A model generated the notes under the pieces. It was not told where the DNA came from, did not search any database, and saw only the letters and a program-made list of their open reading frames with translations. A DNA stretch of 64,000 nt from Squalus acanthias (lineage: Eukaryota), in NCBI GenBank assembly GCA_030390025.1, contig CM059430.1:67890001-67954000 (forward strand). The letters are read 5' to 3'. Every line of letters begins with the position of its first letter. Within the stretch, counting starts at the first letter, position 1. This document shows, in pieces, positions 1,518 through 64,000 of this stretch. The position numbers and the translations under genes are program-made.

Positions 1518-1688
1518 CTAATTGATTCTTACTTCTGCGTAGACAGCCTCTGTTACTCGTCTTTGTTTTTTTGTCCGCAGCTGGGCATATTCTGTCCTTT
1601 CATTATTTTTGCATCTCCCGGTTTTCTCTGAGCCAGTCAATGCTATAGTCGTGTACGTCAGCTTGTCACGCCCTGTCCCTTGTTCGGT
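1518..1688 (-). CDS. Gene A exon 7 (terminal cytoplasmic exon; LTYTTI, TEYAQL, AVYAEV)
   Basis: Acceptor ggcttcacag|ACC; TEQGTGRDKLTYTTIALTG...TEYAQLRTKK...AVYAEVRIN*. Confidence 0.85.
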   Translation of the reverse strand, partial: TEQGTGRDKLTYTTIALTGSEKTGRCKNNERTEYAQLRTKKQRRVTEAVYAEVRIN

Positions 1689-4600
1689 CTGTGAAGCCAA
1701 TGTTTGGAAATATTGTTAATTGTTCATTTTGTAAGTTTTGTGGACTGCTGCTCAAAGCAGCCATCAGAAGGTCACACAAATAGGCATAGATACAACACAC
1801 GGTCAAAGTCAGCACAAACATATGCCCTCCACTATCGCATGAATGTTGATGTAACACCGGTGATCTATGTTTCTCTGATCTGTTACTCAGTCCTACCTCA
1901 GCGTATACGGTTCTCTCCTCTTCACGTTTATATCTTGGTGTTTTCCTGGCTCTGCTCAAATTTAGTGCAGCATAATGCATGAACTCAGCCGCTGCTCCCT
2001 GCATGGGTCCGAATGAAAATTGTTTGCTTATGTGGCTAGTTCATTTTCTTCACCAGTTTACGTGTCGCTGATCAAACAATTGAACAGATAGAACTGAGCT
2101 AGAGATCAAACGCACAAACCCATTTCAGATATATTTACATAGGTATGAATATTAAGGAACTGTGATCACTATAACGAATATTTAAACATGTCAATGTTCA
2201 CAGTACAACACAGTGTTACAGAAATGTTTAAATGAGCGGCAGCTTTAGAACGTAAAGTTTTTTTTCAAATCCAAAGATTAGATAATTGTATAAACATTCA
2301 TTACCTAGGTGTATTTTCAACAAAAAACAGCAGTTTTCTTGTCTGCAATTTAACAATTTTTACCAGCAACGCACTGGGTGCCAAGTACATTTCTAACCAC
2401 GATTTGAATCACTCACTAAGACCGGATAAATACTTTCAGTAAATAGAGTTAAACTGTTCTGTCGTGACTATGATATAATATTTCCATCATAGCAATCTTT
2501 CTTGCCATTTTAACCGTCTGCCGGGATGAACGAATGAACGTACCAGCTCTTCACGGTGGTTCGACCCCGTTGTACATTCTTTATTACCTGGAAATGAATG
2601 AAATTTAATGATATTGAAAGATTGAAATATTTACTCAGTTTCCATGTCAGCGATTGCAAAGACATTTCTTGAGTCAGAACAAAGCAGAACATGATTTCTA
2701 ATTTCGGATTATGCCGAGTGTTTGAAATCATAGCCCTTGTTGTGATCAGCAATGGTGCATTGTATCGATATTTTTATGAAACTAAGGGAAACTTTTTGGA
2801 CACTAGGTAAATACAGGGATATGAGGATAGGGTGGGAAAGTGAAAATGAGGTAGAAGATCAGACATGAACATATTGCATGGTGGAGCAGGCTCGAGGGCA
2901 GTATGGCCTACTCCTGCTCTTGTTTCTTATGGTCTTATGTGTGCAACCATTGCCCGGCCGGAGTCTCACACTCTTTCACTCAAACTCGCTGCGCATCCAC
3001 AATAGAATGGGTTGGAATGTGATGGTGTGTCAGGGTACATGTCATTTGTCGTGCTGCAAAGTGGGCATTTTTATTTCAAATATCCAGGTAATTACCTCAA
3101 TTTTTATTACGATTCTGTGAGCATTCCTGCGTTTTCAATTACATTTGGAACATTTGGCGCTCCTTGAAAACTGATAACTCGGTTTTCAACTTTAATTCCT
3201 AATCAATTTCTCTTTCCCTCGTATTATCCGGAGACTGTCGCTAGCCGTGGGGTTTTGAACTAAAATCAAGGGCTTCATTAGAACTTACTTTCATTATTCT
3301 GCAATCGGCACCGCCTCCCAATGCAGATCATTAGCACTAGAAAAGCCAATCCACCCACCGCACACCCAGGAGCCCAGAAGTAGAGTGAATTATCGAAAAT
3401 ACCTGCAAAATTAATAGGAACATTAAGTTATGACGGGCGTTGGCTAAACATAGGCCTCAAGATAGTTTATTGGTTGAACTATGGCGATGCTTTCAGTAAC
3501 TCCGCAGTAAAATATTTGAAATAACTTCGTCATCCGATGGATGAGACATTCTGGATTAATCTGCGCATCGCACTACCGGTTTAGGGATCTCACAGCATTG
3601 TTTTCGGAGAGTTAGATAACCAGAGAGATCAATTTCCCATGACCAAAAGATGTGTTCTTGTGCTTGAACTTTCTTATTTATTAACATATATTTTGAGGAA
3701 ATTGGAGGTAATTTTGTCACAAGCGTTTCTTCGTTGCCCGGTCAAAATTCGGGATTGCAGCAATCGGTTAAAAATCCCCTTTCAATTACCGGAACTGTGT
3801 TTTTTAAAGTAAGAATGTCATTTACTAGTAAAAGATATCAACGGGCGATGGTTCATTGATTATTGTCTTGCGGGGCAAAGAATTGTTCACAATATGACGT
3901 ATCGTACCGGTTGTACTGTTGCGAGGTTGCGGGCACAGTTTATGAGGTTTATGAGGCAGATCCCAATTAAACCCGCTCTGACATGGACGGGTGAGCGGCA
4001 AAAGTTGGCCAGGGGGTCAATTTCAGAACACTGCACTAGAAGTAGCCGAAATGAGGGTCAGGATAGGGAACTGCATTGGGAGCCGCCCGATTACATATGA
4101 CTGCAGCTCCTGGTAACAGCCTTGGTGCTAGGAAAGCGGGCCATGGTAAAGAATAAAAGAATCAGCAAATTGAAACAAAAGAAACTGAAACATTATTCAT
4201 TATAAGGAGGAAATATAATCGGATGGAAAAGATAAACTTCTGTTTATAGTTGTTTTATCAAATAAAGGAATTTGAAAGCAAATAAGGTTTGTCTGAGAAT
4301 ATTTGTGTGGCGGGCGATATAACCTGGTTTTACAACACATCGGGTTCAATTATTTTGTTCATTACAACATGAAATTAATGCTTTCGTTAATATTTCCCAT
4401 GAGATTTGCGTGGACATTTTTCATGATTATTAATATCTACAAACTGTCCGATATATCTCTTTTAAAAACTAGCAGTAGCTAGCTGTCCTTTTTGGACTGT
4501 TGGCCTCGTACCTTCATTGTATTTAGAAAGAACATGGGTGACAACAGCTGGAGTCTCGAGGGAGACATGAGAAACCAAACAAGTATAATTGGCGTCGCTC

Positions 4601-6389
4601 GGAACCGGCTGTGTCTCAACCAAAGACCTGGAAACTTCAAAAAGTCCCTCCGTGTTCTGTTCTTTCCTGGTATCTAATCCTAATGCAGTTTCGACGCCAT
4701 TTTTATACCAAGTCAGGGTGAAATTCTCCGGAAAAAACGCAGACGTTTTACACACAAGAGTCAGATACGCAGATGAATTCCTTTCAGTGGAGACAATCTT
4801 CAGTGGGGTTGGGGCCGCTGCGGATTGAACGAAATCGATTTACTGGGCACCATTGGGAGATTAAATATGATTCTGATTCACGTTTCGTCCATTTTATTAT
4901 AATAGCACCATAAAAAAGCGCAGCCTCCTGTTCCTTTAATGTTACGCACATCATCTACACACACCTGATCCATATCTCTCATAGACATCCCCATCTGTTC
5001 AATTGTACCTGCGCTATCAAGTCCAAGATTTAAAGTTACTCAGCAGACAAGTCGCAACGATTGGCTAATCAATGTTTGGTTTTCATCGTCCAAAGAATTA
5101 AGTAAATAAACTCGGGGGAAGTTGGCGCGCTGAGTCCCTCCGTGTTTGTTAGGGATAGATAGACAGTGACCAGTAATCTGCACATTGTTGATGATTAAAC
5201 GGGTCCTTAGTCGGTACCGCACAGATTTCACAGCCGAAGCATGACAATTGGTGACAGAAATTATGCTCGGTTGAACCTCAGGAGGTTTCGGTAACACAAT
5301 TCCTCTGTATTGCTTCAGTTATTGGAGGTTAGTCAGGTGACAACGTTGTGTGTTCCAAGCTCCAGCTTGTTGAGTGAAGCCGTTGATCAACAGTAGTTTC
5401 ACGCCGGCTTTCTAATCCTGACGCTTAAATTATGTGAGAATTAATTTCTTGAATGTTAAACCTCAAAAACAGCAATGAGGGCAGGCAGGGCATCAGAAAT
5501 GGGCTGAGAGCCGTGTATATGTTGGGAGAGACGCATTAATGCAAACGATTTTCAGTCAGTTATATGCTTGAAATTTGTTCCGAACTTCCGCTATCAGACA
5601 GCAGGTGTGCAAATTGTGGAGTTATAGTCTAATTGGTTAATATTGATACATTTTGCAGTACTCTGCCTGTGACATTGATTATCTAATTAGCAGTTCTATA
5701 CAGAGCACACGAACATACAACTTGACTTACTGCGAGATATATTAATAGACATGTTTATACTGCCAAAAACTTTGCAATAAAACAATCATAAAACATTCCC
5801 GTTTGTTATTTTCGATATATTTTCGACTGTGCCGCTCTCCTGTATTTCACACTTACCATGCGCAATTAGATGTGATCCGGTTCCATTTCCTCGAATTATT
5901 CCTTGATGCAACACTGCACACTGATAGACTCCAGAGTCTTGGATAGTCGCGCTCAGCAACTGAAAGGACCCGCTCCCTTTACTTTTCAGATCAAATTGTT
6001 TTCTATTTTCGGCGCTTGTGCGCAGGTATTCATTCTCACCCTGTTTCCACCAATACACTCTTACCCAGGAATTGTCCTGGGAGATGGGGAATATGCAGTA
6101 GAAGGTGATGTTCCCCCCTCTGGATACAGTCGCTTGTTTGGGCGCTTGAGTTACAATGAACGAAATCTGGTCCGCTGCTGTTAGAAAATATAGTCAAGTA
6201 CAGGTTAATTGTATTAGACACGTCATGGAGTTGGAAGAGAGAAAAATAATCTAGATAGAGGAATTACAGTTCACTAAAATAATGTGCAAACTACCTCGGA
6301 AGAATTTTATAAATTAAAGTAGCTGGGTCAATGAACAAAGATGTACCTGTGTAAATAACTCCCTGGAGAGTCAGGCACAAAAAAAGCAT
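1518..6389 (-). CDS. Gene A: non-rearranging VJ-C1-TM receptor with ITIM/ITSM-like tail (SIRP-like/VJC1-type IgSF), 366 aa, 7 exons
   Basis: Hand-spliced exons 6389-6347, 6177-5857, 4817-4512, 3402-3289, 2587-2544, 1998-1897, 1688-1518 total 1101 nt, in frame, all GT-AG, phases 1,1,1,1,0,0. Each exon has a homologue in gene B. Confidence 0.85.
1897..1998 (-). CDS. Gene A exon 6 (cytoplasmic; MHYAAL, TVYAE)
   Basis: cccatgcag|GGA GCA...GCT GAG|gtagga; homologous to gene B exon 59072-59182. The acceptor position is inferred (see findings). Confidence 0.7.
2544..2587 (-). CDS. Gene A exon 5 (44-nt juxtamembrane cytoplasmic exon)
   Basis: cattcatttccag|GT AAT AAA...GAG CTG|gtacgt; same length and phases (1->0) as gene B exon 58121-58164. 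Confidence 0.8.
2790..2939 (+). mobile_element. CR1 LINE 3' tail fragment (intronic in gene A)
   Basis: gaggtagaagatcag...ggagcaggctcgaggg...ctactcctgctc...ttcttatggtcttatg, same tail as 56520-56612. Confidence 0.75.
3289..3402 (-). CDS. Gene A exon 4 (transmembrane)
   Basis: ttttgcag|GT ATT...GAA A|gtaagt; GIFDNSLYFWAPGCAVGGLAFLVLMICIGRRCRLQNNE, an uncharged hydrophobic stretch followed by basic stop-transfer residues. Not in the ORF track. Confidence 0.85.
4512..4817 (-). CDS. Gene A exon 3 (Ig C1-set domain)
   Basis: AAPTPLKIV...LTLVCKTSAFFPENFTLTWYKNG...YTCLVSHVSL: C1 hallmarks (CxxxxFxP, WxKNG, YxCxVxH); phase 1-1. Confidence 0.92.
5857..6177 (-). CDS. Gene A exon 2 (Ig V domain with germline J-like G strand)
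   Basis: IVTQAP...ITFYC...VYWWKQ...DSGVYQC...GNGTGSHL; NAGNAG acceptor (aacag/cag), donor G|gtaagt; 321 nt, phase 1-1. Confidence 0.92.
6347..6389 (-). CDS. Gene A exon 1 (signal peptide MLFLCLTLQGVIYT)
   Basis: ATG...ACA G|gtacat, phase 1; homologous to the gene B leader (LFCISLVGVLYR). Confidence 0.75.
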
Positions 6390-10429: not shown

Positions 10430-10711
10430 CCGCAATGCTGGGAGTCAGGAGGGTGACATAAGATACCAAACAGATGTAAATAGCCCCGTTCGGGACAGGC
10501 TGCGTCACTTCTAAAGAGCTGGAATCTTCATACAGCCCCTCAGTGTTCTGCCGTTAATGGGTTTTTTCCCAGTTGCGGTTTCGATGCCATTTTTATACCA
10601 AGTGAGGCTGAAATCGCTCTGGTAAAACTCAGCCGTTTCACAAACAAGAGTCAGACGCAGATGAATAGATCTCGAGTGTCCTGGAGACAATCTTTAGTGC
10701 GGTTGGGGCAG
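10430..10711 (-). pseudogene. Pseudo-C1 exon of a gene A paralogue
   Basis: ctgttctgcag|CT GCC CCA ACC GCA CTA AAG ATT GTC... gives LTLVCETAEFYQSDFSLTWYKNGIETATG and QNTEGLYEDSSSLEVTQPVPNGAIYICLVSYVTL, with two frameshifts and no 3' donor. Its upstream intron (similar to gene A intron 2) is traceable between TEs to ~16285. Confidence 0.88.
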
Positions 10712-20134: not shown

Positions 20135-21716
20135 GGATTGCGGCGGTAAGCTTTCGGACGTCAGGGTTTCGGGGTGTGCATTTTCCAGATCGGCAATTCT
20201 AGTAAAAAATAATGCCGCTTTAAAAAATAATGAAGCAAAGTTTTAGCTTTAGTACTGTTTCTTTTCCTAAACTACCGAGGAAACGAGAGGCTCTGCAATT
20301 GTCTCGTGGAGAAAGCAGCAATAAGTTAGGCATTTGGAAGTGCAGCGATCCTCACAGAATAATATTATAAATGGATCGGAATATCTGTGTATTTATAATA
20401 GAAATGTCCATTTTGGAGTAGTTGATATCTGAAATCTGCCTTTTTCACGTCGTCAGTTTTAAAATCATTCAGTCTATTGCGAACTGCAAGTAGGTTGATT
20501 GAAGCTCGGAATGGTGGCATGTGATTACAAATAGTTAAAAGGGGCTGGGATTCCAAACGGTGTCGGATAAATGTGGTTTTGAAAAAGATGTGAGGCTTTA
20601 CACTGACGCTAGAAATGTCTTTGAAATAACGGCCATGATAACTGAGTAGCCATTCCAATTATTTAATTAATTAAATTACATTAATTCCCAGGAAAGTCTC
20701 ACGGGACCTGTCGGTAACTAACGCGGTTCCATCTTTATCCAGGCAGAGGGATCAAATGTGAAAACATTTATTTTACAGTGACGAGGTCTTATCATAATTA
20801 TGTCAGGATACTTTCTAAATCTATTTCATAAAAGCATTTGTCCCTCTTTAGCGATTCAAATCGCACTTCGGAAAAAAATATGTGCCGCCGGGTGCATTGT
20901 TGCTGCTGATAGCTAAAAAGTACAAAATCTAAATTACGTTTGTTAAAATTGTACCGAGCTAATACCTAGATAAGAACTATTTAATGGTTCGTCAAATCTT
21001 GTATGTGGAATATAACTTCATGTAAATATGTTTTAATTTTCTCGCTCATTTAAACACATTTATAACACGGTATATGCAGTGTGAACTTTGACAGTTTGCA
21101 ATATCAGTTACACTGGCCGCACTCATTAACAACCTTGACTTTCACACCTATTGAAATGTATCAACTATGGTTTCTGCACTTTAGTTGTAGCCCCGTCATT
21201 CAGATCAATGTTTGCCCAGAATTATGTAGTCTGGTGCAGACAGTGAATCAACCACATAACACAATGCTTTCATTACAGCCCATGCAGGGAGCAGCACAAA
21301 GCATTCAATTCGATCAGACTAAGCCAAGCTCCAAGACCTAAGATGAGGAGACGAAATGTGTACGTTTAAGCAGGACCGAGAATCAAACGCAGAGCATCCG
21401 TGCGGCGTTAACATTTAAGCGCGATACCGGACTATTTCGACTAGTGCTGACTTTGACCGTGTATTGCATATGAGGCTGATGGATGCTTTGAGCAGCAATC
21501 CACAAACTAGTAAAACAATCAAATAATAATATTTCCAAACTGTGGCTTCACAACGAAGATCAGGAGAAGTCGAAGTACGCGAATCTAGAATTGACTGTCT
21601 CCGAAAATACAGGGATACCTAAAAATAACAGAAGAAGCACAGAATAGTCAGAGCTACAGACGAAAATCGAAAGACAAGTAATAGAGGACGTCTACAGAGA
21701 AGCAAGAATCAAATAG
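20135..21716 (+). pseudogene. 3' remnant of a gene A paralogue (TM donor, exons 5-7 and introns)
   Basis: Colinear with the reverse complement of gene A 3300->1518, including introns (gtgctgactttgaccgtgt; tgctttgagcagca). Exon 6 copy PMQGAAQS... has a stop; exon 7 copy has acceptor AG->AA and TEY->TE*, and ends DVYREARIK*. Confidence 0.88.
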
Positions 21717-23286
21717 CGGGTACAATTTTAGATGCAGAAACCATTTTATCCAGATTTATATTGATCGTACTGCACTATCATATCTGCATGTTATGTAATT
21801 ATAATATTACCATCTGGAGGATAGAGTGTACCTGTAGGATTCAGTAAACATTATCAAGATTCTATAACCATTTTTACATAACTATAATATGTGAAATTGT
21901 ATGTTCAAAACCTAAAAAGCCTGTATAAAATGGCGAATGGCTGAGCTCAAAGCATGATGGGAAAATTATGCCAACCTGACTATAAACCTCTGTTTTAAAT
22001 TACTCAAATAATGGAATGTAGTACTAAGTAAACACGGAGGCTGTCAGGGACATGGAGTTCGGTAATATAATGGAAAAGTGATTGGAGTTGGTGCCTTCAG
22101 TTTAGAAACAGCAGAATAGACAAACTGTTTAGAAAACACCTCAAGAAGTGAAGTTCTAAGATATGGGTATTTTGTTATGCACAGGAATAGGCGTGATGGA
22201 ACTAACGAGGTCATAAGATAATTGACTAGAAAAGGGGAGGGAATCATAGACCGTACTTGAGAAGGTCAGAATGGTGAGATAGCCCAAGCAGCTGCAAGTT
22301 GCTATGTATTTTTAAAGAAAGAAAAGGTATAAAGGAACAGCTATTAAACACTGGAAGCAGCGCGAAACCATAGGATGAGAAGCTTCAGTCAACATAATAC
22401 AGCAAGGGAATAAAGATACCGCGCCACAGTCACTCGGAAGGAACGCCGGGGTTCAATGAACAGACTGCGACTATCTTCTTGTTAAGTATTACTTCTTTGT
22501 ACCTGATGTTTAATGCTTAGTAAACCTGTTTTACTTATACACAATATACCTGTACCCAGGCAATTTATTATAAAGAGCTTTTGAAAGCTACAGATTCCCC
22601 TTCACACCCATCTGTCGCCTCGCCCATTTTAGCATTAGCAGTTATTACTTTTTTAAGCATTTATGAATTTTCGATTAGCAAAACAAATTTTATACACATG
22701 AAATTTTGATATTTTTTCTCTGTACCCGTTATCAGGACAAATGAAATGATAATCACATAAAGTGGCTATCGTTTAAATTTATCCACTCAATTGGCTTCTG
22801 TGTCTTTTGAAAAAATCCTTAAAGTCTTTGTTTCAAGGTCTCAACCTGTCTCAAAAGCTTAGACTTCAACTGGATATTTCTTTAGCGTTCAACCGCATCT
22901 GTGCATTCCCAGTTTCTGTAGTTTACATATTTTTACAGCATGCAGTTTGTGTATTTGGAGCATGCCCAGTTTACAGAATGTCCCAACATACTGCCTGTAC
23001 ATCAATAGGAATTGAAGAGTAGAGGATATGTCCCTTGAGTCCTAAGTGTTTGAGAATTGCGTTGATTATTCCAAAAGACTGAAATAAATTTGAGATTGAA
23101 TTCTCAAATATTTATTTCATGAAAGTGATGACATTTATTATGAGATGTTGTTCTCTGTTGTGAACTGCTTAGACAACACAAGTGAGGGACAGACCACTTC
23201 AGTAGCAACATTGTGACTGTAGTTTCCACAAGTAAAATGTTATGCTTATTAAATTCAGTGGCCGTTCTCCTTATCGGCCATAACTT

Positions 23287-52607: not shown

Positions 52608-55600
52608 GTGTGTTTCTTTATCTTACCGCTCCATGCTTATCGAAAAAAAGTTAATGTTAAAACAATTTATCATATTTTGTGCACATTTCTTTCTTCCGTT
52701 TTTCTTATTGTGTTATTAATGTGGTTAATTTTCTTGTTTTTTTTAAATTTCTGAGTCATTATATTTGTTCTTTTTCGAAAGTATGCAAACTATTATGTCA
52801 GCATTTTTGTTTATTTTCTGATAGCCGCTGAAGTAACTTCGATCAAAGTGGATCAATTCCCGAAATACATTAAGGTTGCCAGGAATACAAATGTTTCCAT
52901 GTTCTGCACATTTCCCATATTTCAAGATGCCCCCGATGTTTATTGGCGGAGATGGGGCGAGGAGACGTTCCTGGAGCCAGACAGGAGAAAGCAATTTAAT
53001 GTAAAAAAGGGAAGTGGTTCATTTGATCTCCTGAATGCGAGTGTCGCCGACTCCGGATTGTATTACTGTCAAGTAAAACATCATCAAAAATCTATTGGAG
53101 ATGGAAGTGGCTCCCAGCTTACTGTGTACGGTAAGTGTCATTGTGACGGGGAGTGGGAGATTCTCAGCAGTGTGCGATATATGTAAACATCAATAGTGGG
53201 GGGAATTTGAACTTTTTTCACTTGACGAAAACCACGTGATAGCAAATTCGTTTTAAAATTCTCCCAATTTTCTTTTCCATTGACCCCGGTGTACAACTGC
53301 CCGCCGATTCGCTAGCGCCCGGTTTCCTCTACTGCCCCAGATCAATTTTACCCCTTCATTGTCCGCATGACATTCCAAAGTGCTTTGCATCCAATGAGTT
53401 CTTTTGGAATTGCAGTTACAATTATTAAGGAGGCAAGATACTGAAATAGTACAAATGTTTAAATCTTGGCTTGAAATTAATAACTGGGATTAGATGGCCA
53501 AATTCCTTCTCACCAAAATAGCGATACCAAGGAACGACAATGGGAACAATTCTAAAACCTCCGAGGTCAGGTATTTTATACTTCATTAAAGGACAGCTCC
53601 GCCGCCCCAACAAGGTACCTTCATCACAAACTCAACAGAACAATGTCCTGCTACAATCGTGGTTATTGCACACACCAGGGAACATTTGGGCCCCACTACT
53701 TAAAATTGCCAATTTAATATTTTCTGTGCAGAATTGTCCAAAATCTGGAATTCTCTCTCCAAAATGGAGGTGGATGATGAGACAATAGGAGCTTCCAAGA
53801 TTGACATGGATAGATTTTTGTTAGGTGGGGTTATCAAGGAATATTGAGTTAAGTGGACAAATGGATTTGAGGTACAGATTAGCCATCATCTAATTGAATG
53901 GCGGAGCAGACTCGAGGGACTAAATGGCTCCTCCTGTTCCTCTATCCGCAGTTTAGGCTGTGCACTTGCTTTCATTGAGAACTTTTTTGAGACTGCCAAA
54001 CTAATTTCACAAAGGAATCTTATAATCCATTGAAAGGGAAGTGTTGGTCTTACCCTCAATGCTGGATTCCACCCTAAGTCCTAGACCTTGCACGAGAGTG
54101 TAGTAACCCAATGATACTGTTTGAACATCTGTCTTACGACAATTGGACTTTCTTTCATACACTCACAACCTGTAAAGTACGGGCAGATTATCGCCGAAAT
54201 TGCAATAAACGCCTGGGCTCCCGTATTTGCAATTCATGATTTCCATTTCTATTCTACCAATCCCAGACTGAAGTTACGGCAGCAGATTAAGTGAACACTT
54301 TCGTCCTCCTCCTGCATGGAAATTCAACCTCATAACATATTATGTCGAAACAGATCAGTGGTAAAGAATGGAGGAATTCTGAGCTTTGGTTGGGCAATCA
54401 ACACGGTGCTGCTGGGAATAAAGGCTGAAATAACGTTCCAAGTTAATAATAACTCTGATTTAAATGTTTGCTATTGCTACAAAATCGGAAAAGTAAACAT
54501 TTAAAGAAAAGATGTTAAGGAGTTTGTTTGTAATAAATTTACAAAACAATGCAAACCTAATAATGGACTCTACTTCCAGCTAAACAGTGACTGTAGCTCT
54601 AGCGGACAAAGGTTCTCATCAGTAAAAGACGATTGTAGGACAGATATAAGCAGAATCTACTTCAGGCAAAACGTGTTCAACAGACCGAATAGACTTGGGG
54701 AAGGACAGAAACCCTGGAATTATGTAAGACATGCACTCAGACTTAGGAGATCCGATTCGGATTCCCTCATCTGTATGGATGTTGTGATCTACACAGAGAT
54801 ACATTATTACCAATATAACGCTTTCATGAGGTGAAACAAAATCCAGCCCTCGGTTCGCACTCTGGGGAAAGTACATTTAGAGAAAGCTGCACGATCTGAA
54901 ATCTCCACCACAGACACTGAAATGCTGAGTTAGCAACTGTAATGCACGAATATTAATCTAACAGCATCCTGTCTGCAATCTGTGTAGACATCAGAGATAT
55001 TTCGATATATTGGCAAAAATTCTTCTTCTCATTATTCACCGTTTATATAAAATATGTTTCCAATATATGAAATATCTAAAAAGCGACCAATTTTTAAATA
55101 AACACACAAACTGTTTAATACTCCAAAGATTATCAATAAACTACGAGAAGCGGTTTCACTGTTCGTGCAGACTGGGTTGAGCTCTCTCAATTATAGTCGG
55201 ACAGGAACCTCACTCGGAGTCACTGCTGCCAACCACAATCCCGCGCCAATATCTGCTACTCCATTCAGAACAGTGACGCGTGCCACCCTGCATGTTAGCA
55301 GCCCTGGGAGATTCACCCTCTTTTTGCGTACGGTTTCCAATATATTCCGTCATTTTGCTGTGCGCCGTAAAACAATTTATAAAATAAATGGAAACTCGAA
55401 GTTTCAAAAAAACGACAGCGCGGATAGCTATTATGACAGTAGGAATGTAACAGCATAACGAGAGTAGGCAAATGAGATTGTGTTCCTTTAAATTAAAAAA
55501 AACTTTTTTTCTGTTAAAGTTCCCCCAACTCCCCTGAAAATCGCTCCTGTTGAAGGGATTTCAGCGACTTCTCTAAAACTCGAGTGTAAAACAACTGCCT

Positions 55601-58600
55601 TTTACCCGGAGCATTTAGAAATCTCCTGGCGAAGAGATGGTGTCGAAAATTTGACCGGAATAGCAACTGTGAAAAACAGGAACGCGGAGGGACTGTTTGA
55701 GGTTTCCAGCTCGTTGGAAGAAGCACAGCCTGCCCAGAGCGGAGTTGTTTATACATGTCTGGTATCTCATGTCTCTCTTCTGGTGCCCGCCAATGTCAGC
55801 TACACCGTTAATCGAGGTAAGATTGGAAACCTGTAAAGCGGGGAGCGGGGATCTGCTCCAACCTGCAATTACTTATTAGACATGCAGCTGGGTCCCTGTT
55901 CAACCCCGAGGATATAGGGTAAATGTGAAATCTATTTAATCTCAGTGTCACATCGATGGGAACGGTATAAAATATTCCTGATGGTTTGTAAGTGAAGGAC
56001 AGTGAATATCACGCTGAAGAGATCCGCAACGGGAGGTTGATGTGCGAACTGTTCAAAAGTTGAAAGATCATTCCTCCGCAAATTCTTGCCAAATAAAATA
56101 AAATTACGCATCAAATTGATCCATTCTACCAGATTCACTATAACATCCTATATATTTAAATGGAATATATGGAGCTGTTATTGAGTAGATTGAGCCTATA
56201 CTGTCTGGAATTTAGAAGAATGAGAGGTGATCTCGTTGAAATATATAAGATTCTGAGGGGGATTAAACAGATAGATGCTGAGAGGCTGTTTCCCCTAGCT
56301 GGAGAGTCTAGAATTAGGGGGCCAAGTCCCAGGATAAGGTGTCGGCCATTTAGGACTGATATGAGGAGGAATTTATTCACTCTGAGCGTTGTGAATCTTT
56401 GGAATTCTCTCCCCCAGAGGGCTGTGGCTGGGTCGTGAAGTATATTCAAGGCTGAGGTAGATAGATTTTTGGACTCTAAGGGAATCAAGGGATGTGGGAA
56501 AAGGGCGGGAAAGTGGAGTTGAGGTCGAAGATCAGCAATGATGTTCTTGAATGGCGGAGCAGGCTCGAGGGTTCGTATGGACTACTCCTGCTCCTAATTC
56601 TTATGTTCTTATTATGTTCATCTGTTCTCTGCGCACCGTTCCTTCAGCTGTCTGGACCTTAAACTTTGGAATTCCCGCCCTAAACCTCTTCTATATCTCT
56701 CTCCTTCTTTAAGACGTTCCTTAGACCCTACCCCCACCTGTCCTAATCGTGGCTTGTTCTCAAATGTTGCTTGATACCGCTCCTGTGAAGTGCCTTAGAA
56801 TGTTTTACTACGTTAAAGGCGCTATATAAATGCAAGTCGTTCTTGTTGCCTACCAAAAGTTGCAGTAGGTGATCTCTGGTAAGGCTCGTGAGGGGTGGCT
56901 GCACTGGAGAACGGGCGACTTTGCCACGATTTGCAGTCTGTGCCCATCAGTCCGGTGTAGCATGGCTACGTAAAATATGAAACTCCTTTTACTCTTAATT
57001 AACAACCCTCGTCTGCAGAGAGAAGCTTCCTGGGCCTTTATGTAATGGGATTTGTTTTCTCCATAAATTGCATCACTGACTTGCAGTTGCTGTCGTTTGG
57101 TACACGTTATAATCCTTGTCCAGCTGCTGCCCATAGAAATAAAGGGGTCGAGCCCCTCTGACAGTCAGTGGACGCCATCATCTCGAGAGACACCTTTGGA
57201 ACACGCCCTCCCGTTCCGGACCCATGAGTCCCTGTCGTTATATGTCTCTATTTTCTACAGTTTCTTATTTCAATTATCTGTTGATCCTGTAGGGACTGAT
57301 GACAAATTTGCACTGATATTTGGATGTGCAGGGGGCGCATTGGCAATTTTACTGTTGATAATAATTTTGACGAGACTCACATTGCAGGCATCAGATGGTA
57401 AGAACATTTCTTATTTCCCCGAATGCTTTTATTTTCCGCGGTCCAGTTGTATTGTTACAAAACCGAAAGAGCAGGTGAATAGGGATTGATTGTAGACGGA
57501 TAAAGTGCCCTTAACTGCCTGCATCTTCAAAGAATGAAGTTACTACCACAAGAGCGTTATGTGGTTGGCAGTAGATGAATATGACAATGTAAACCGGATC
57601 TTGAAATGTAAATATTTTACCTTCCCATTCGAACTATTCACTCAACTTATACACTTTCATTTTGCAACAACCGGAATCCTTAATGTTCTGCAATGTTTTA
57701 GTATCAGTGCGGGTCCAGATCTTGAAACGTAAACAATTTGAGGTAGATGTTGACTTTTTGCGATCGTGTAAAACGGATGATAGCGAACTGACAGACTGTT
57801 TTACATCTCTCCCGATTTCTATTTGCCTAAATGTGTGTCACTGGGAGAGATGTAAAATGGGCTGCCGTCTCACTATCACCCATTTTACACTATCGGACAA
57901 AGTCAAAGTCTACTCCATTGGGTGCAGCATCACTACGGGGTATGAGAATGTCATCAACAGTATAATGCACTAAGGACTGGCACTTCTAAACACCTTCAAG
58001 CAGATCTGTCCCTTCAGATCTCCTTACGTTACAAAGTAAATGTGACCAACATCAAAACATGTTGGTTTTGCTGGCACACAGATTAAGTTATTCAAGGTGG
58101 ATTTTTTTTCTTTCCTTTAGGCATTAAGAGAAATTCTGTGGAAGCGGGTCAGAGTGAAGAGCCGGTAGGGTGACAATTTTCTTTATGTTCCAAAAAAGAA
58201 GGGGCAGGGGGGGAATAGTAACCCAATATATACATTCAGCCGAGAAGATACTACTTATATTTCATAGAATCATAAACTCTTACAGCACAGAAGGAAGCCA
58301 GCGTGCCTCTTCCGGCTCTTTGAAAGAGTTATCCAATTAGTCACACCCCCTCCCGCACTTTACCCATAGTCCTGCAATTGTTTTCGTCCCAATTCCCATT
58401 TTGTAAGTTCCTACTGAATCTGCTTCCACCATCCTTCCAGGCAGTGCGTTCCAGATCATAACAGCTGGCTGCATAAAATATTCTCCTCATCTTCCCTCTG
58501 GTTCTTTTGCCAATTATCTTAAATCTGTGTCCTTTGCATACCAACCCACCCATCAGTGGAAACAGTTTCTCCTTATTTACTTTATCAAAAACCCCTCCGA

Positions 58601-60790
58601 ATTTTGAACACCTCTATTAAATCTTCCCTTAACCTTCTCTGCTCTAAAGAGAACAATCCCAGTTGTAAGATCCTCCAATAGGCTGGGCTGGCCGAGGAAT
58701 AGGAAAGTGGCCGACGCCACAGCAGGAGTGAAAACCTTCAGGAGAGTAGACAGATCGAGTTAATTGGGGACGAAAGGGAGAAATGAGTAATGTGTAGTAT
58801 TCATAGGATAGTTATTAGCTGTGCTCCAAATCATCCTGATTTTAAATGTATGTAAATAATTTGTGCGCTATGGGTTTCATATTTAGAACATTACTCCACA
58901 ACCTATTGGTGAGATATTGGATAAAATCGTTGAGTGGGACAGAATGTAATCGTGCCCTAATCCATCGGTTACTGTGTGCATACTTAGACTTTCAGACTCA
59001 GTTCCAATTGATGGTAGCTGGCAGCTGTATCAGACTCTCCGCTATCAGTATTTCATGTCTTATTTTTATAGGTTAGACAAGGACCAAGTGAAGAGATTGC
59101 CGCCTACGCTACTCTAAACTTGAGAGACGACAGAGGACCTTCCAAACGGAGACAGGAGAAAGACCACACCGACTATTCCCAGGTACATAGGATTACATCC
59201 AATATACGGCACAGAAACAGGCCATTCGGTCCAACCAGTCCATGCCGTCGTTTATGCTCCACAGAGCCTCCTCCCGTCTCTCCTCATCTAAATCTATCAG
59301 CGTAACCTTCTATACCCTTTTCTCTCATATGCTTGTCTAGCCTCCCATTAAATGCATCTATACTGTTCGCTTCAACCACTCCCTGTGGTAGCGAGTTCCA
59401 CATTCTTACCACTCTTTGGGTAAAGATGTTTCTTCTGAATTCCTGATATGTATGCCCTCGCATTTCTGGTATCATCCTAGTACATCGTCTCTGCTCCCTC
59501 TCCAATGCCTTCAGTTAGAGCGGAGGGATGGGCGCCAATAATATCCAAACCATTCCCATACAAAATCAACAGTGTGAGCTAACATAGGCAATGTTAACAA
59601 TCTGTACAGAAAACTGGGGGTAATTTTGACTTGTGTGCGACAGTGTAAAATGGTGATAGCTAAACGGCATCTCTGCCACTAACTTCAATGGAAATACAAT
59701 CGGGAGAGATGTAAAACGGGCTGCGGACCCGTGTCACACTATCGCACAGTCAAAATTATCCTCGTTTCTTTTTCGGGTCTGGCTGTGATAATGATTGCTC
59801 TGAACGACAAATTGCAAAATAGGAAACTCACCTGATCAGACTCGCAAATATCTCTGTTATAGACGAAGCACGGAACCGGCGACAGACTGACCTACGCCGC
59901 TCCCGTAAACGACACCACGAAAAACGCGAAACCCAGACAGAAGGAGGAGAGCACGGTGTATGCCCAGGTACAGCTCAGGTCATTCATTGAAACACGATCA
60001 ATGTTCTGCGGTACGACACTGAGCCGCAGGAAATAGAAAGATCCCAGGTTTCAACTACCAAGTGTGCTGTGTCGGCTGATCTCAGCCAAGGTTCATCATA
60101 GTTGACCTCCGTGTCCCAGGGATCGGCAGGGGGTGGGAGCGGCTGAAAAGTGCAGATGCGTGAGCAGTTTCAACCTTGGACCCACCGCCATGGGATCAGC
60201 AGGTCACACAGGCTGTCGAGGCTCAGACAGCTTAAAACGGTACATTGCGATATGAGATATACTTAACAGATGGGTATGACATTCCTTTGTCTGTTATTGT
60301 AATTGAAGTATTAACCTGCTCATTTCAATGGGTTACAACAGCAGAGAACTAATTTTATATGAACGTTAAACCGGAATACTTACAAGATTTTTTTCGGGCC
60401 CAAAAATGGGCCCTGGGTGTGGGGGCAACAGATGCTCCTGGAATTGGTGCCCAACAGGAATCATTGTTTGCAGAGCAAGGAGAAACCGGAGAGAAAATAA
60501 AATCAGTACAAAATCTGAATAAAACGGTTCCAATCTGAAGTTGGTAATTGATGAGAGGAAATTTCCCCACAGCCTTTTTTAAAGCTCGATTGCTTCAAGC
60601 AATGAGTGGGCAATGGACGAACGACTGATACCAAATGTTACTTTCACAGACAAAACAAAGACGCGGCGACAACAAGCTGACTTACGCCGCTCTGCAGCTT
60701 GCTGATTCCAAGAAAACATCAAAATCGAAACAACAAGACAAGCGGGCTGTGTACGCAGAAGTAAACGTGAGAAACAAAGAGAGAAGCTGA
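52553..60790 (+). CDS. Gene B: non-rearranging VJ-C1-TM receptor with six-tyrosine tail (SIRP-like/VJC1-type IgSF), 387 aa, 8 exons
   Basis: Exons 52553-52607, 52825-53130, 55520-55816, 57293-57397, 58121-58164, 59072-59182, 59863-59967, 60650-60790 total 1164 nt, in frame, all GT-AG. Confidence 0.9.
52825..53130 (+). CDS. Gene B exon 2 (VJ-type V domain)
   Basis: KVDQFP...VSMFC...VYWRR...DSGLYYC...GDGSGSQLTVY G|gtaagt. Confidence 0.93.
55520..55816 (+). CDS. Gene B exon 3 (C1 domain)
   Basis: PPTPLKIAP...LKLECKTTAFYPEHLEISWRRDG...YTCLVSHVSL; G|gtaaga. Confidence 0.93.
56165..56612 (+). mobile_element. CR1 LINE 3' fragment (intronic)
   Basis: LEFRRMRGDLVEIYKIL...RRNLFTLSVVNLWNSLPQ followed by a ttcttatgttctt tail. 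Confidence 0.88.
56630..56848 (+). mobile_element. L2-type 3' end
   Basis: ttccttcagctgtctggacc...tggaattcc...tgtgaagtgccttaga...ggcgctatataaatgcaagt. Confidence 0.6.
57293..57397 (+). CDS. Gene B exon 4 (transmembrane)
   Basis: GTDDKFALIFGCAGGALAILLLIIILTRLTLQASD; cctgtag| and |gtaaga. Confidence 0.9.
57740..57916. repeat. Short hairpin MITE-like element
   Basis: Nearly whole-length inverted symmetry (ttttacatctctccc / gggagagatgtaaaa; ttgacttt / aaagtcaa). Confidence 0.7.
58121..58164 (+). CDS. Gene B exon 5 (44 nt)
   Basis: tttcctttag|GC ATT AAG...GAG CCG|gtaggg. Confidence 0.85.
58262..58662 (-). mobile_element. CR1 LINE 3' fragment (intronic)
   Basis: tcatagaatcata tail; KGHRFKIIGKR on the minus strand. 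Confidence 0.8.
59072..59182 (+). CDS. Gene B exon 6 (AAYATL, TDYSQ)
   Basis: tttttatag|GTT AGA CAA...TCC CAG|gtacat, phase 0-0. Confidence 0.85.
59205..59510 (-). mobile_element. CR1 LINE 3' fragment (intronic)
   Basis: RRNIFTQRVVRMWNSLPQGVVEANSIDAF. Confidence 0.85.
59616..59763. repeat. Short hairpin MITE-like element (57740 family)
   Basis: ggggtaattttgact / agtcaaaattatcc ends; gggagagatgtaaaa core. Confidence 0.65.
59863..59967 (+). CDS. Gene B exon 7 (LTYAAP, TVYAQ)
   Basis: ctctgttatag|ACG AAG CAC...GCC CAG|gtacag, phase 0-0; paralogous to the neighbouring tail exons. Confidence 0.8.
60650..60790 (+). CDS. Gene B exon 8 (LTYAAL ITIM, AVYAEV, stop)
   Basis: ctttcacag|ACA AAA CAA...TKQRRGDNKLTYAALQL...AVYAEVNVRNKERS*. 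Confidence 0.88.
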   Translation, partial: TKQRRGDNKLTYAALQLADSKKTSKSKQQDKRAVYAEVNVRNKERS

Positions 60791-61320: not shown

Positions 61321-61326
61321 AATAAA
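61321..61326 (+). terminator. Candidate polyadenylation signal of gene B
   Basis: AATAAA about 530 nt after the stop codon, followed by T-rich sequence. Confidence 0.55.
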
Positions 61327-61817: not shown

Positions 61818-64000
61818 ATGGCTGACACGAATGCAGTTTCCGTGAAACTGCCGGAGTTTGGGAAAACCAACCCGAAGCCTCGTTTCTCCAAGCTGAATCC
61901 CGCTTCCGGTTGCTAAACATCAACACAGATGGGACGCAGTACGACTACCTCGTCACATCACTCGGTAGCGCCACAGTTTCGAAGGTTTGGACAGCACTGC
62001 AGAACCCACCATGGAAGGCAAGAATGCACATCTCAAGGCAGCGCTCCTTAAAAGATTTACAGCCTCGACATGCCAGCAAAACTGCCAGCTCCGCGACATT
62101 CCAGGCGTCGGTGTTGCCTCACCGTCAGACCTCCTCTCCCACATGCTCTCCCTCACCGATGAGAGCCCACCCGAATCCCTCTTCCGCACACTGTTCATCC
62201 GCCAGCTACCTCTCAGCATCCGCCCAGCAATCGTGGCGTCCGGCCTCACGAACCTGGAAGCCCTGGCCGATGACTCCGACAAGCTGCTGTCCGCTCACTC
62301 CAGCCACGATGTCACTCCGGACATGGCAGCCAATGCCTGGGCGCGCCCCTCACCGGCCACCACGCGGCCACAAGGACTAGCCACCAGGCCCACGGGGCCT
62401 TCGCGCCCCACTAACCCGGGCCACTGTTACTACCACGCACGGTTCGGCGCCAGGGCACAATGGTGCACACCTCCCTGCTCTTTCAAGACCGCCCCCGTAC
62501 CTGTCCCCGTGATGGCCGTGGGCCACGCGGGCTCCCTGCTGTACGTCATGGATCACAGAACCGGCCGCCGGTTCCTGTGCGAAACTGGAGCTCAGCACAG
62601 CATCATCTCGGCCTCCTCCCTCGACATCCAAAAGGGCGAACAAGGACCGGCGCTGGCTGCTGCTGATGTCTCGGAAATCAGGATGTACGGCACCCGGACA
62701 GTCACCCTCGACCTCGCTGGTCGCCACTACCGATGGGAGTTCATCACTGCCAAGGTGCTCACCCCTCTCATCAGCGCAGATTTCCTGTGTGCCCACGGCC
62801 TACAGGTAGACATCCCTCGTCACCGCCTCGTGGACATGAACACCATGTCCCACATCCTGGGCGTCATGGCCTCCCGTCAACCCGCTGACATGGTGTCACA
62901 GTGCCACGCCCGGGCCACGGATGACTACTCGGCACTCCTGGCCGAATTGCCGGCCCTTACCAATCCGACCTTCTCCGTGGAGGACGCCAAACATGGGGTG
63001 GAACACTTCATCCCCACCACAGTCCCCCCAGTGTACGCTCACGCCCGCAGGCTGGACCCGGCCAAACTGGAGATTGCGCGGACCGAGTTTGCCACCATGG
63101 AGCAGCTCAGCATCATCCACCGCTCCAACAGTCCCTGGGCCTCCCCACTCCACATTGCCCCCAAACCAGGTCGGGGTTGGCGACCCTGCGGGGATTACCA
63201 CCGCATCAACGGCGCCACCACCCCTGATCGGTACCCCGTGCCGCACATTCAGGACGTCTCGGCGAGACTGGCCGGCCGCTCAGTCTTTTCCAAGGTCGAC
63301 CTGGTGCGCTGATACAACCAAGTCCCCTCCACCTCGCGGACGTCCCCAAGACGGCCGTAATCACCCCCTTCGGCCTGTTCGTGTTCCTGCGGATGCCCTT
63401 CAGCCTCAAAAACGCAGCCCAGGCATTCCAACGGCTCATGGACTCGGTCCTTCAGGAACTGAAGTACCTGTTCACTTCCTGAACGACATCCTGGTAGCCA
63501 GTTCCTCTAAGCAGGAACACCTCGAACACCTTCGCATCCTGTTCGGGCGCCTCAGTGACCACGGGCTCATCCTCAGCCCAGCCAAATGCCAGATCAGCCT
63601 GGACAAGATCGACTACCTCGGCCACCACATCACCCATGCTGGGGCCATTCCCCTGCCCACCAAGGTGCAGGCCGTCCAACAATTTCCCCGCCCCACCACC
63701 ATCAAAGGCCTCCTGGAGTTCCTCAGGATGGTGAATTTCTATAACCGCTTCATCCCCAAAGCGGCGTCCCTCATTAGGCCCCTGTATGAAGCCCTCCGGG
63801 GCCGGAGCGGCAAGATGGCGGTCGAATGGGTGGCAGCCCCATCCACCGCCTTCGACTCCACCAAGACCGCGCTCGCCAACGCCACCCTGCTCACGCACCC
63901 ATGGCCCAATGCCAGGGTAGCGCTCACCACGGACGCCTCCGACCACGCGGTCGGCACTGTGTATGAGCAGTGGGTCGACGGCGCCTGGCAACCACTTGCC
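61818..64000 (+). mobile_element. Gypsy (CsRn1-type) gag-pol, disrupted; continues beyond the window
   Basis: NAVSVKLPEF gag start; CYYH-x9-C-x3-C knuckle; protease FLCETGA; RT SPWASPLH...WRPCGDY...DRYPVP...FSKVDL; LTTDASD RNase H start; contains frameshifts and a stop at 63310. Confidence 0.92.

Follow-up and report, generated by a model that had tools for sequence, protein, structure and literature searches.

Three introns in two genes, A and B, begin on the codon for the valine at position Y+3 of a tyrosine motif, and the locus raises the question of how splice donors came to lie on the residue that completes an ITSM and whether this placement is put to use. Both genes lie in the window, i.e., the whole stretch of 64,000 nucleotides of Squalus acanthias DNA that was analyzed. 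Re-reading of exon and intron letters bore out what the first-pass annotation had described: the position is exact at all three donors, the read-through frames run into stops that end at 59305, 60036 and 1666, the following exons begin with the threonine codons ACG, ACA and ACC, and the terminal motifs also carry donor-like codons (GAA|GTAAAC in gene B, GAA|GTAAGA in gene A). Unspliced, the junctions read TDYSQV, TVYAQV and TVYAEV and satisfy the ITSM consensus TxYxxV/I given in PMC4610628, with Thr at Y-2, Tyr and Val at Y+3; in the spliced form of these three junctions the Val/Ile at Y+3 is replaced by Thr. A valine at this place is forced, as any phase-0 intron starting with GT reads GTN, and the three donors represent one homologous position seen three times. 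It is therefore only the position of the intron that calls for explanation.

Two interpretations had been attached to these observations: a switch in which regulated intron retention or intronic polyadenylation turns ITSMs on, and, as a fallback, a duplicated terminal exon that recruited its Val codon as a donor. The comparative data favor the fallback, on account of a contrast in AG|GT between internal and terminal module ends and of intron starts that resemble terminal coding tails, while the switch is left with no positive support, its read-through peptide being unconserved and its B1 frame consisting of a repeat. The switch is weakened and not eliminated by this, since the Val alone suffices to complete the motif. 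On balance, we consider it probable that the donors on the Y+3 Val go back to an early duplication of the terminal ITIM-ITSM exon, with the upstream copy's own xAG|GTN codons recruited as the donor.

Gene structure and relatives

Pfam identified a V-set and a C1-set domain in each of the two genes (Table 1). Gene B is laid out as V, C1, transmembrane exon, 44-nt exon and three tyrosine modules, and the modules are homologous, symmetric exons of phase 0-0. The last exon of gene A contains an additional, intron-free motif, TEYAQL, which was absent from the first-pass list; spliced gene A consequently already has a motif with Thr at Y-2 and a hydrophobic residue at Y+3. By domain content and tail motifs, genes A and B encode V-C1-TM receptors of the shark whose ITIM/ITSM tails are SIRP-like, of the inhibitory type by anatomy, a description by which we do not claim membership in the SIRP family.

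Table 1. Features of genes A and B in window coordinates.
Gene	Feature	Positions	Strand	Remarks
B	V-set exon	52825..53130	+	J-like end GDGSGSQLTV; PF07686, E 7.7e-10
B	C1-set exon	55520..55816	+	PF07654, E 8.4e-10
B	Transmembrane exon	57293..57397	+	matches Heterodontus XP_067906043
B	Short cytoplasmic exon, 44 nt	58121..58164	+	phase 0 at end
B	Module 1 exon	59072..59182	+	AAYATL ... TDYSQ; phase 0-0
B	Intron B1, 680 nt	59183..59862	+	donor CAG|GTACAT on Y+3 Val codon; read-through stop 59303-59305
B	High-copy interspersed repeat	59189..59486	.	strand not assigned; supplies B1 read-through codons 3-40
B	Module 2 exon	59863..59967	+	LTYAAP (decayed ITIM) ... TVYAQ; phase 0-0
B	Intron B2, 682 nt, last intron	59968..60649	+	donor CAG|GTACAG; read-through stop 60034-60036
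B	Terminal coding exon	60650..60790	+	LTYAAL ... AVYAEV, stop
A	V-set exon	5857..6177	-	Pfam; donor ATG|GTAAGT at 5856
A	C1-set exon	4512..4817	-	Pfam
A	Transmembrane exon	3289..3402	-	
A	Short cytoplasmic exon, 44 nt	2544..2587	-	phase 0 at end; donor CTG|GTACGT at 2543
A	Module 1 exon	1897..1998	-	MHYAAL ... TVYAE
A	Intron A1, 208 nt, last intron	1689..1896	-	donor GAG|GTAGGA; read-through stop 1668-1666
A	Terminal coding exon	1518..1688	-	LTYTTI, in-exon TEYAQL (1595-1578), AVYAEV, stop

The closest proteins are RefSeq models of Heterodontus and Heptranchias with 70-79% identity over the V domain, annotated as SIRP-alpha-like, NCR3LG1-like and tapasin-related, and relatives reach rays and Callorhinchus. 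In the genome of the window itself, a search with the terminal module at E up to 1 yielded 56 matches, almost all of which fall within 61-76 Mb of contig C6, and a search with the tail DNA of gene A yielded 40; at least 50 tail-module matches lie on one contig. On contig C6 the V-C1 receptor family forms clusters at about 61.4-62.8, 67.4-68.2 and 72.6-75.6 Mb, which comprise at least eight tail subfamilies, with many of the tails broken. The genes point to an expanded shark family of V-C1 inhibitory-type receptors that is seemingly undescribed: the open-access literature searched contained neither a description of such a family nor a report of a splice switch of the ITSM kind.

Further remnants occur in the window. 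A third, decayed A-type tail copy (20690-21720, plus strand) is broken by stops and frameshifts in each of its two module exons, reads TAA|GCAGGA at the donor position and is likely a pseudogene; a frameshifted C1-like exon (10460-10710, minus strand) resembles the C1 exon of gene A; and the interval 61969-64000 (plus strand) holds Gag-, protease- and reverse transcriptase-like frames interrupted by stops and shifts, which likely belong to a decayed LTR retrotransposon. Among the database models, P0002, P0020 and P0033, from three species, are annotated isoforms that are devoid of the transmembrane exon yet possess the tyrosine tail.

Splicing of the module junctions

The spliced junction is present in database models of Callorhinchus, Heptranchias, Heterodontus, Scyliorhinus, Mobula and Hypanus, records that are gene-model predictions, so that minor isoforms could be missed. 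Three sequence runs with the same species label cover mainly repeats and yielded a single spliced contig: it stems from run X1, whose RNA nature is a guess, and joins 59967 to 60650 with GT..AG borders and 46 letters on the shorter side, thereby removing B2, at a depth of 3.7 and with 8 of 157 letters differing, perhaps as it derives from a paralog. This cover is too thin to judge retention, and its absence over the introns was given no weight as evidence.

At 34 junctions of database proteins the Y+3 residue is T in 19 cases, I and V in four each, A and N in two each and M, K and S in one each; these junctions come from 28 of 30 proteins (two proteins gave no row and two rows were corrected by hand), and at least three of the rows are junctions that carry two extra residues. 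The residue at Y+3 is set by whichever codon opens the following exon: a recent module duplication in Mobula resulted in TVYAQ|S, and splicing gives Ile in three A-type paralogs. In a gar protein the internal TVYAEV is intact. No read-through was found in any of the 12 proteins matching a profile of exon plus read-through, a weak search, and none of the annotated isoforms of 16 clusters was a read-through form, which is likewise weak evidence. We infer that splicing is the normal outcome and that the protein has TxYxxT internally and a motif with hydrophobic Y+3 only at its end.

Origin of the donors

The ends of internal and of terminal modules differ in donor potential. In a set of 25 additional loci, xAG|GT stands at each of the 24 ends of internal modules, as compared with two of 25 terminal module ends (L085 and L086); the other terminal ends have mostly Leu or Ile codons at this place or a non-AG codon before Val (GAA|GTA, GCG|GTG). 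Moreover, intron starts such as GTA CAG CTG AAA resemble the terminal tails CTA CAG ATG AAA and GTT CAG TTC AAA. When the starts of eight subfamily introns were scored with a matrix of ten terminal tails, they exceeded their own intron bodies at p<1e-4 for positions +4..+15 and p = 1e-4 for +7..+15, and Mann-Whitney comparison with eight further donors in genes A and B gave p values of 0.019 (+4..+15), 0.08 (+7..+15) and 0.36 (+7..+12); the eight introns are non-independent, and the effect relative to other donors is modest once the splice-consensus bases are dropped. The likeness to terminal tails fits an origin from tandem donors, considered below, equally well.

The steps of the proposed recruitment would be as follows. 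The terminal ITIM-ITSM exon would have been duplicated once, together with its acceptor, early in cartilaginous fish. The upstream copy would then need a phase-0 donor ahead of its stop, which could fall only on a Val codon, and a Val codon following Gln or Glu would be the best donor available. We infer both the duplication itself and its age, and the event should be older than the chimaera-shark split because the junction is common to Callorhinchus. Taken this way, the locus offers a tidy example of a signaling motif edited by exon duplication, in which a key codon was reused as a splice site.

Intron positions +7/+8 are occupied by CT in most subfamilies, including 17 of the 21 A-type introns and the window at 59974-59975 and 1889-1890. 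This CT is unexplained; a relic Leu codon, a dead donor and a splice-site contact all come into question.

The read-through frame and a retention switch

According to the proposed switch, the last intron would be retained in a regulated way, or polyadenylation would take place within an intron, to yield a short receptor that ends in TxYxxV plus a tail, with the ITSM restored and the downstream motifs dropped. Several observations are in line with such an isoform. The last introns are short, about 130-240 nt in most subfamilies; a retained last intron would evade junction-dependent decay. The donors of gene B are devoid of an intronic G at +5, and the two AATAAA hexamers inside B2 (60496 and 60518) are both shared with paralog L089, to which we attach modest weight; a further AATAAA follows the terminal exon of gene B at 61321. 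The internal T-x-Y is conserved between species, and the B2 read-through TVYAQV equals ITSM1 of CD229, which binds SAP according to PMC4610628.

Conservation of the read-through peptide had been set beforehand as one of two tests of the switch, next to the existence of retained or truncated isoforms, and it was not borne out. Read-through spans 40 codons in B1, 22 in B2 and 76 in A1, and the chance of such open lengths in random window DNA is 0.18, 0.37 and 0.05, respectively (product about 0.003); these lengths are not maintained among paralogs. In 21 A-type introns they range from 6 to 79 codons with a median of 14, and in 26 other module introns, a set that omits the frameshifted match in L076 and a duplicated L070 row that was out of frame, from 1 to 40 codons, with extremes such as V-stop (L088) and VG-stop (L075, L078). 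Taken together, the 47 homologous introns give 1-79 codons with a median of 20, compared with a median of 14 and a mean of 23 for random window DNA. Three A-type read-throughs are frameshifted early (L041, L044 and L051), and the donor GT itself is lost in two of the 21 A-type introns (L049, CAC|GG; L055, CAG|TT).

Divergence points in the same direction. Across ten disjoint pairs from 20 A-type copies (L055, the most diverged and frameshifted, was left out), read-through codons 3-13 differ at 0.095 per site, i.e., at the rate of the remaining intron (0.099), and the flanking exons at 0.079 and 0.071. The pN/pS ratio of the A-type read-through, based on pairwise and per-column counts with low power (31 differences) and uncorrected transitions, is 0.54 in frame versus 0.89 and, in frame +2, 0.47 off-frame, with the remaining intron (0.75-0.95) and the last exon (0.56) as controls; in frame, the ratio is no higher than that of the exon, yet one off-frame control is lower still. 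These figures indicate no coding constraint on the read-through, at low power.

In B1, read-through enters an interspersed repeat after two codons. The repeat has 7061 candidate genomic copies, of which the 39 best other copies are 91-93% alike, most of them over the first ~255 nt, and a summed contig depth of ~50,000. A target-site duplication was considered, as GTACAT recurs at 59480, and rejected: it is missing from the three paralogs inspected, and one copy elsewhere in the genome runs across the site. The ATTAAA of B1 falls within the repeat, A1 contains neither AATAAA nor ATTAAA, and one or the other hexamer is present in just one of the 21 A-type introns.

A repeat as the B1 tail and a range from a single codon to 79 speak against selection on the read-through, although an unconserved tail is compatible with a switch that needs the Val alone. 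In a crude count, the module donors agree with U1 at 6-7 of nine positions, as do the remaining donors in the two genes, and in several genes I or V is already encoded at the start of the next exon. Spliced gene A retains TEYAQL, which among the A-type paralogs is better conserved (Tyr and hydrophobic +3 both 20/20) than the weaker internal motif (Tyr 17/20). Given also that the profile search returned no read-through form, we rate a regulated retention switch as unlikely. If it were true, it would represent a splice-level ITSM toggle in the oldest lineage with adaptive immunity.

Conservation of the internal tyrosine

Among 28 cross-species proteins, 23 retain the internal Tyr, which is thereby conserved about as well as the Tyr of the first ITIM (25), and 17 retain the Thr at Y-2; of 34 proteins tried, two were skipped and four were anchored on the wrong motif, leaving these 28. 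Conservation of the internal Tyr and Thr-2 exceeds that of most spacer columns, and splicing accounts only for the Gln or Glu at Y+2. A function of the putative site TxYxxT must therefore be assumed, as a pure relic would not predict a kept internal Tyr. Threonine is near valine in shape. For SAP, PMC7337045 describes three contact points and tolerance to loss of the phosphate, and these properties together with the Thr/Val likeness do not amount to binding of Thr+3.

Hence, either TxYxxT serves for binding once spliced, or selection acts on a retained isoform, and we favor the former. The conserved internal Tyr of the spliced product would then act as an SH2 site that is weaker or has a different selectivity, within a tail that would be inhibitory and probably SHP-recruiting. 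A small and testable question follows, namely that of the binding partner of the conserved TVYAQT. The wider proposition, that the Y+3 Val codon doubles as motif residue and splice donor so that retention of the last intron, or use of a donor 6 nt downstream as predicted for L041 (see below), constitutes a regulated ITSM switch, we regard as doubtful; if true, it would account for the internal Thr-x-Tyr having been kept since the chimaera-shark split.

Tandem donors and proto-splice insertion

A different origin would start from an ancestral tail V-Q-V-R that contained two in-frame donors 6 nt apart (CAG|GTA CAG|GTG AG), to which we accord little credence. It is equally improbable that in some genes use of the downstream donor keeps the Val at Y+3 in the spliced product and use of the upstream donor removes it, toggling the ITSM without truncation, and just as hard to credit that the second donor was lost in most copies by a change from GT to CT. 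In agreement with such a past, positions +4..+12 of the eight subfamily introns match the donor consensus at 5.0 of nine positions, where other donors reach 3.1 and intron bodies 2.8, and the prevalent CT at +7/+8 of the A-type introns would be what remained. The terminal coding tails score 4.9/9 likewise, however, so that codon content alone explains the likeness to the donor consensus.

Two extra junction residues, as expected from downstream donor use, are found in TVYAT-VQ-GKQG, IEYTT-VQ-TMQG and TEYAQ-LQ-TTQ and in Heterodontus XP_067905935 (TAHAQ-VG-TKQR), all known from protein sequence alone. At the DNA level, a 4-nt deletion in L041 (G000:C6:62759718-62760229, minus strand) puts GT at +7, with TVYARVG-TEQG as the predicted in-frame product. 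Against this stands that GT occurs at +7 in one of 39 distinct introns checked and in none of the window's three. Tandem donors 6 nt apart may thus have existed and, in a small number of genes, may toggle the motif; this does not extend to the three introns of the window.

Insertion of an intron at a CAG|A proto-splice site in an ancestral TxYxQT, with a coincidental Val upon read-through, is very improbable: every phase-0 intron reads Val and TVYAQT is old and conserved, which speaks for it, but neither the likeness of intron starts to terminal coding tails nor the avoidance of AG|GT at terminal motifs is explained, and the first module begins with Thr even where no Tyr precedes it (Callorhinchus EEQ-TKHG).

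Comparison with known systems

The favored exon duplication resembles a described mechanism of intron gain, in which tandem duplication at a cryptic AG/GY site provides a donor from an exonic AG|GT in the duplicated coding stretch and in which retention may persist as an alternative, for a time or for good, as set out in PMC2891723. In the shark genes, by contrast, the acceptor would stem from a copy of the end of the upstream intron, and the residue lost to the recruited donor is one that defines the motif.

The SLAM family, whose ITSMs bind SAP/EAT-2, offers a parallel in motif: the unspliced B2 of gene B agrees letter for letter with CD229 TVYAQV (PMC4610628). The shark ectodomain is V-C1 instead of V-C2, and the spliced product is TVYAQT; the open-access literature search returned no SAP from sharks.

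In overall design, genes A and B resemble SIRP-alpha (SHPS-1). They share with it a J-like V-set domain followed by a C1-set domain, a single transmembrane segment and a paired tail of the form xTYAxL ... TxYAx(V/I). Many of the shark relatives bear the RefSeq name [quoted passage not shown], and P0171, which we take to be a SIRP-alpha-like protein, aligns over V, C1 and tail of the shark family with 23-29% identity. The ectodomain of SIRP-alpha is V-C1-C1. Such an arrangement was not found in genes A and B, which have a single C1 exon each, as do their V-C1 relatives; they further differ from SIRP-alpha in having dozens of paralogs and in a tail whose two or three modules each occupy a phase 0-0 exon of their own, with internal modules cut after Y+2.

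Finally, the non-rearranging VJ genes of sharks, UrIg, UrIg2 and NCR3, share with the present family a single-exon V domain with a J-like end followed by C1 (PMC12227049 and PMC10751288). UrIg2 is among the best PDB sequence matches of the family profile (E 2.3e-12); it differs in that it has nine C1 domains according to the same sources, and the main text of PMC12227049 mentions neither ITIM nor SIRP.
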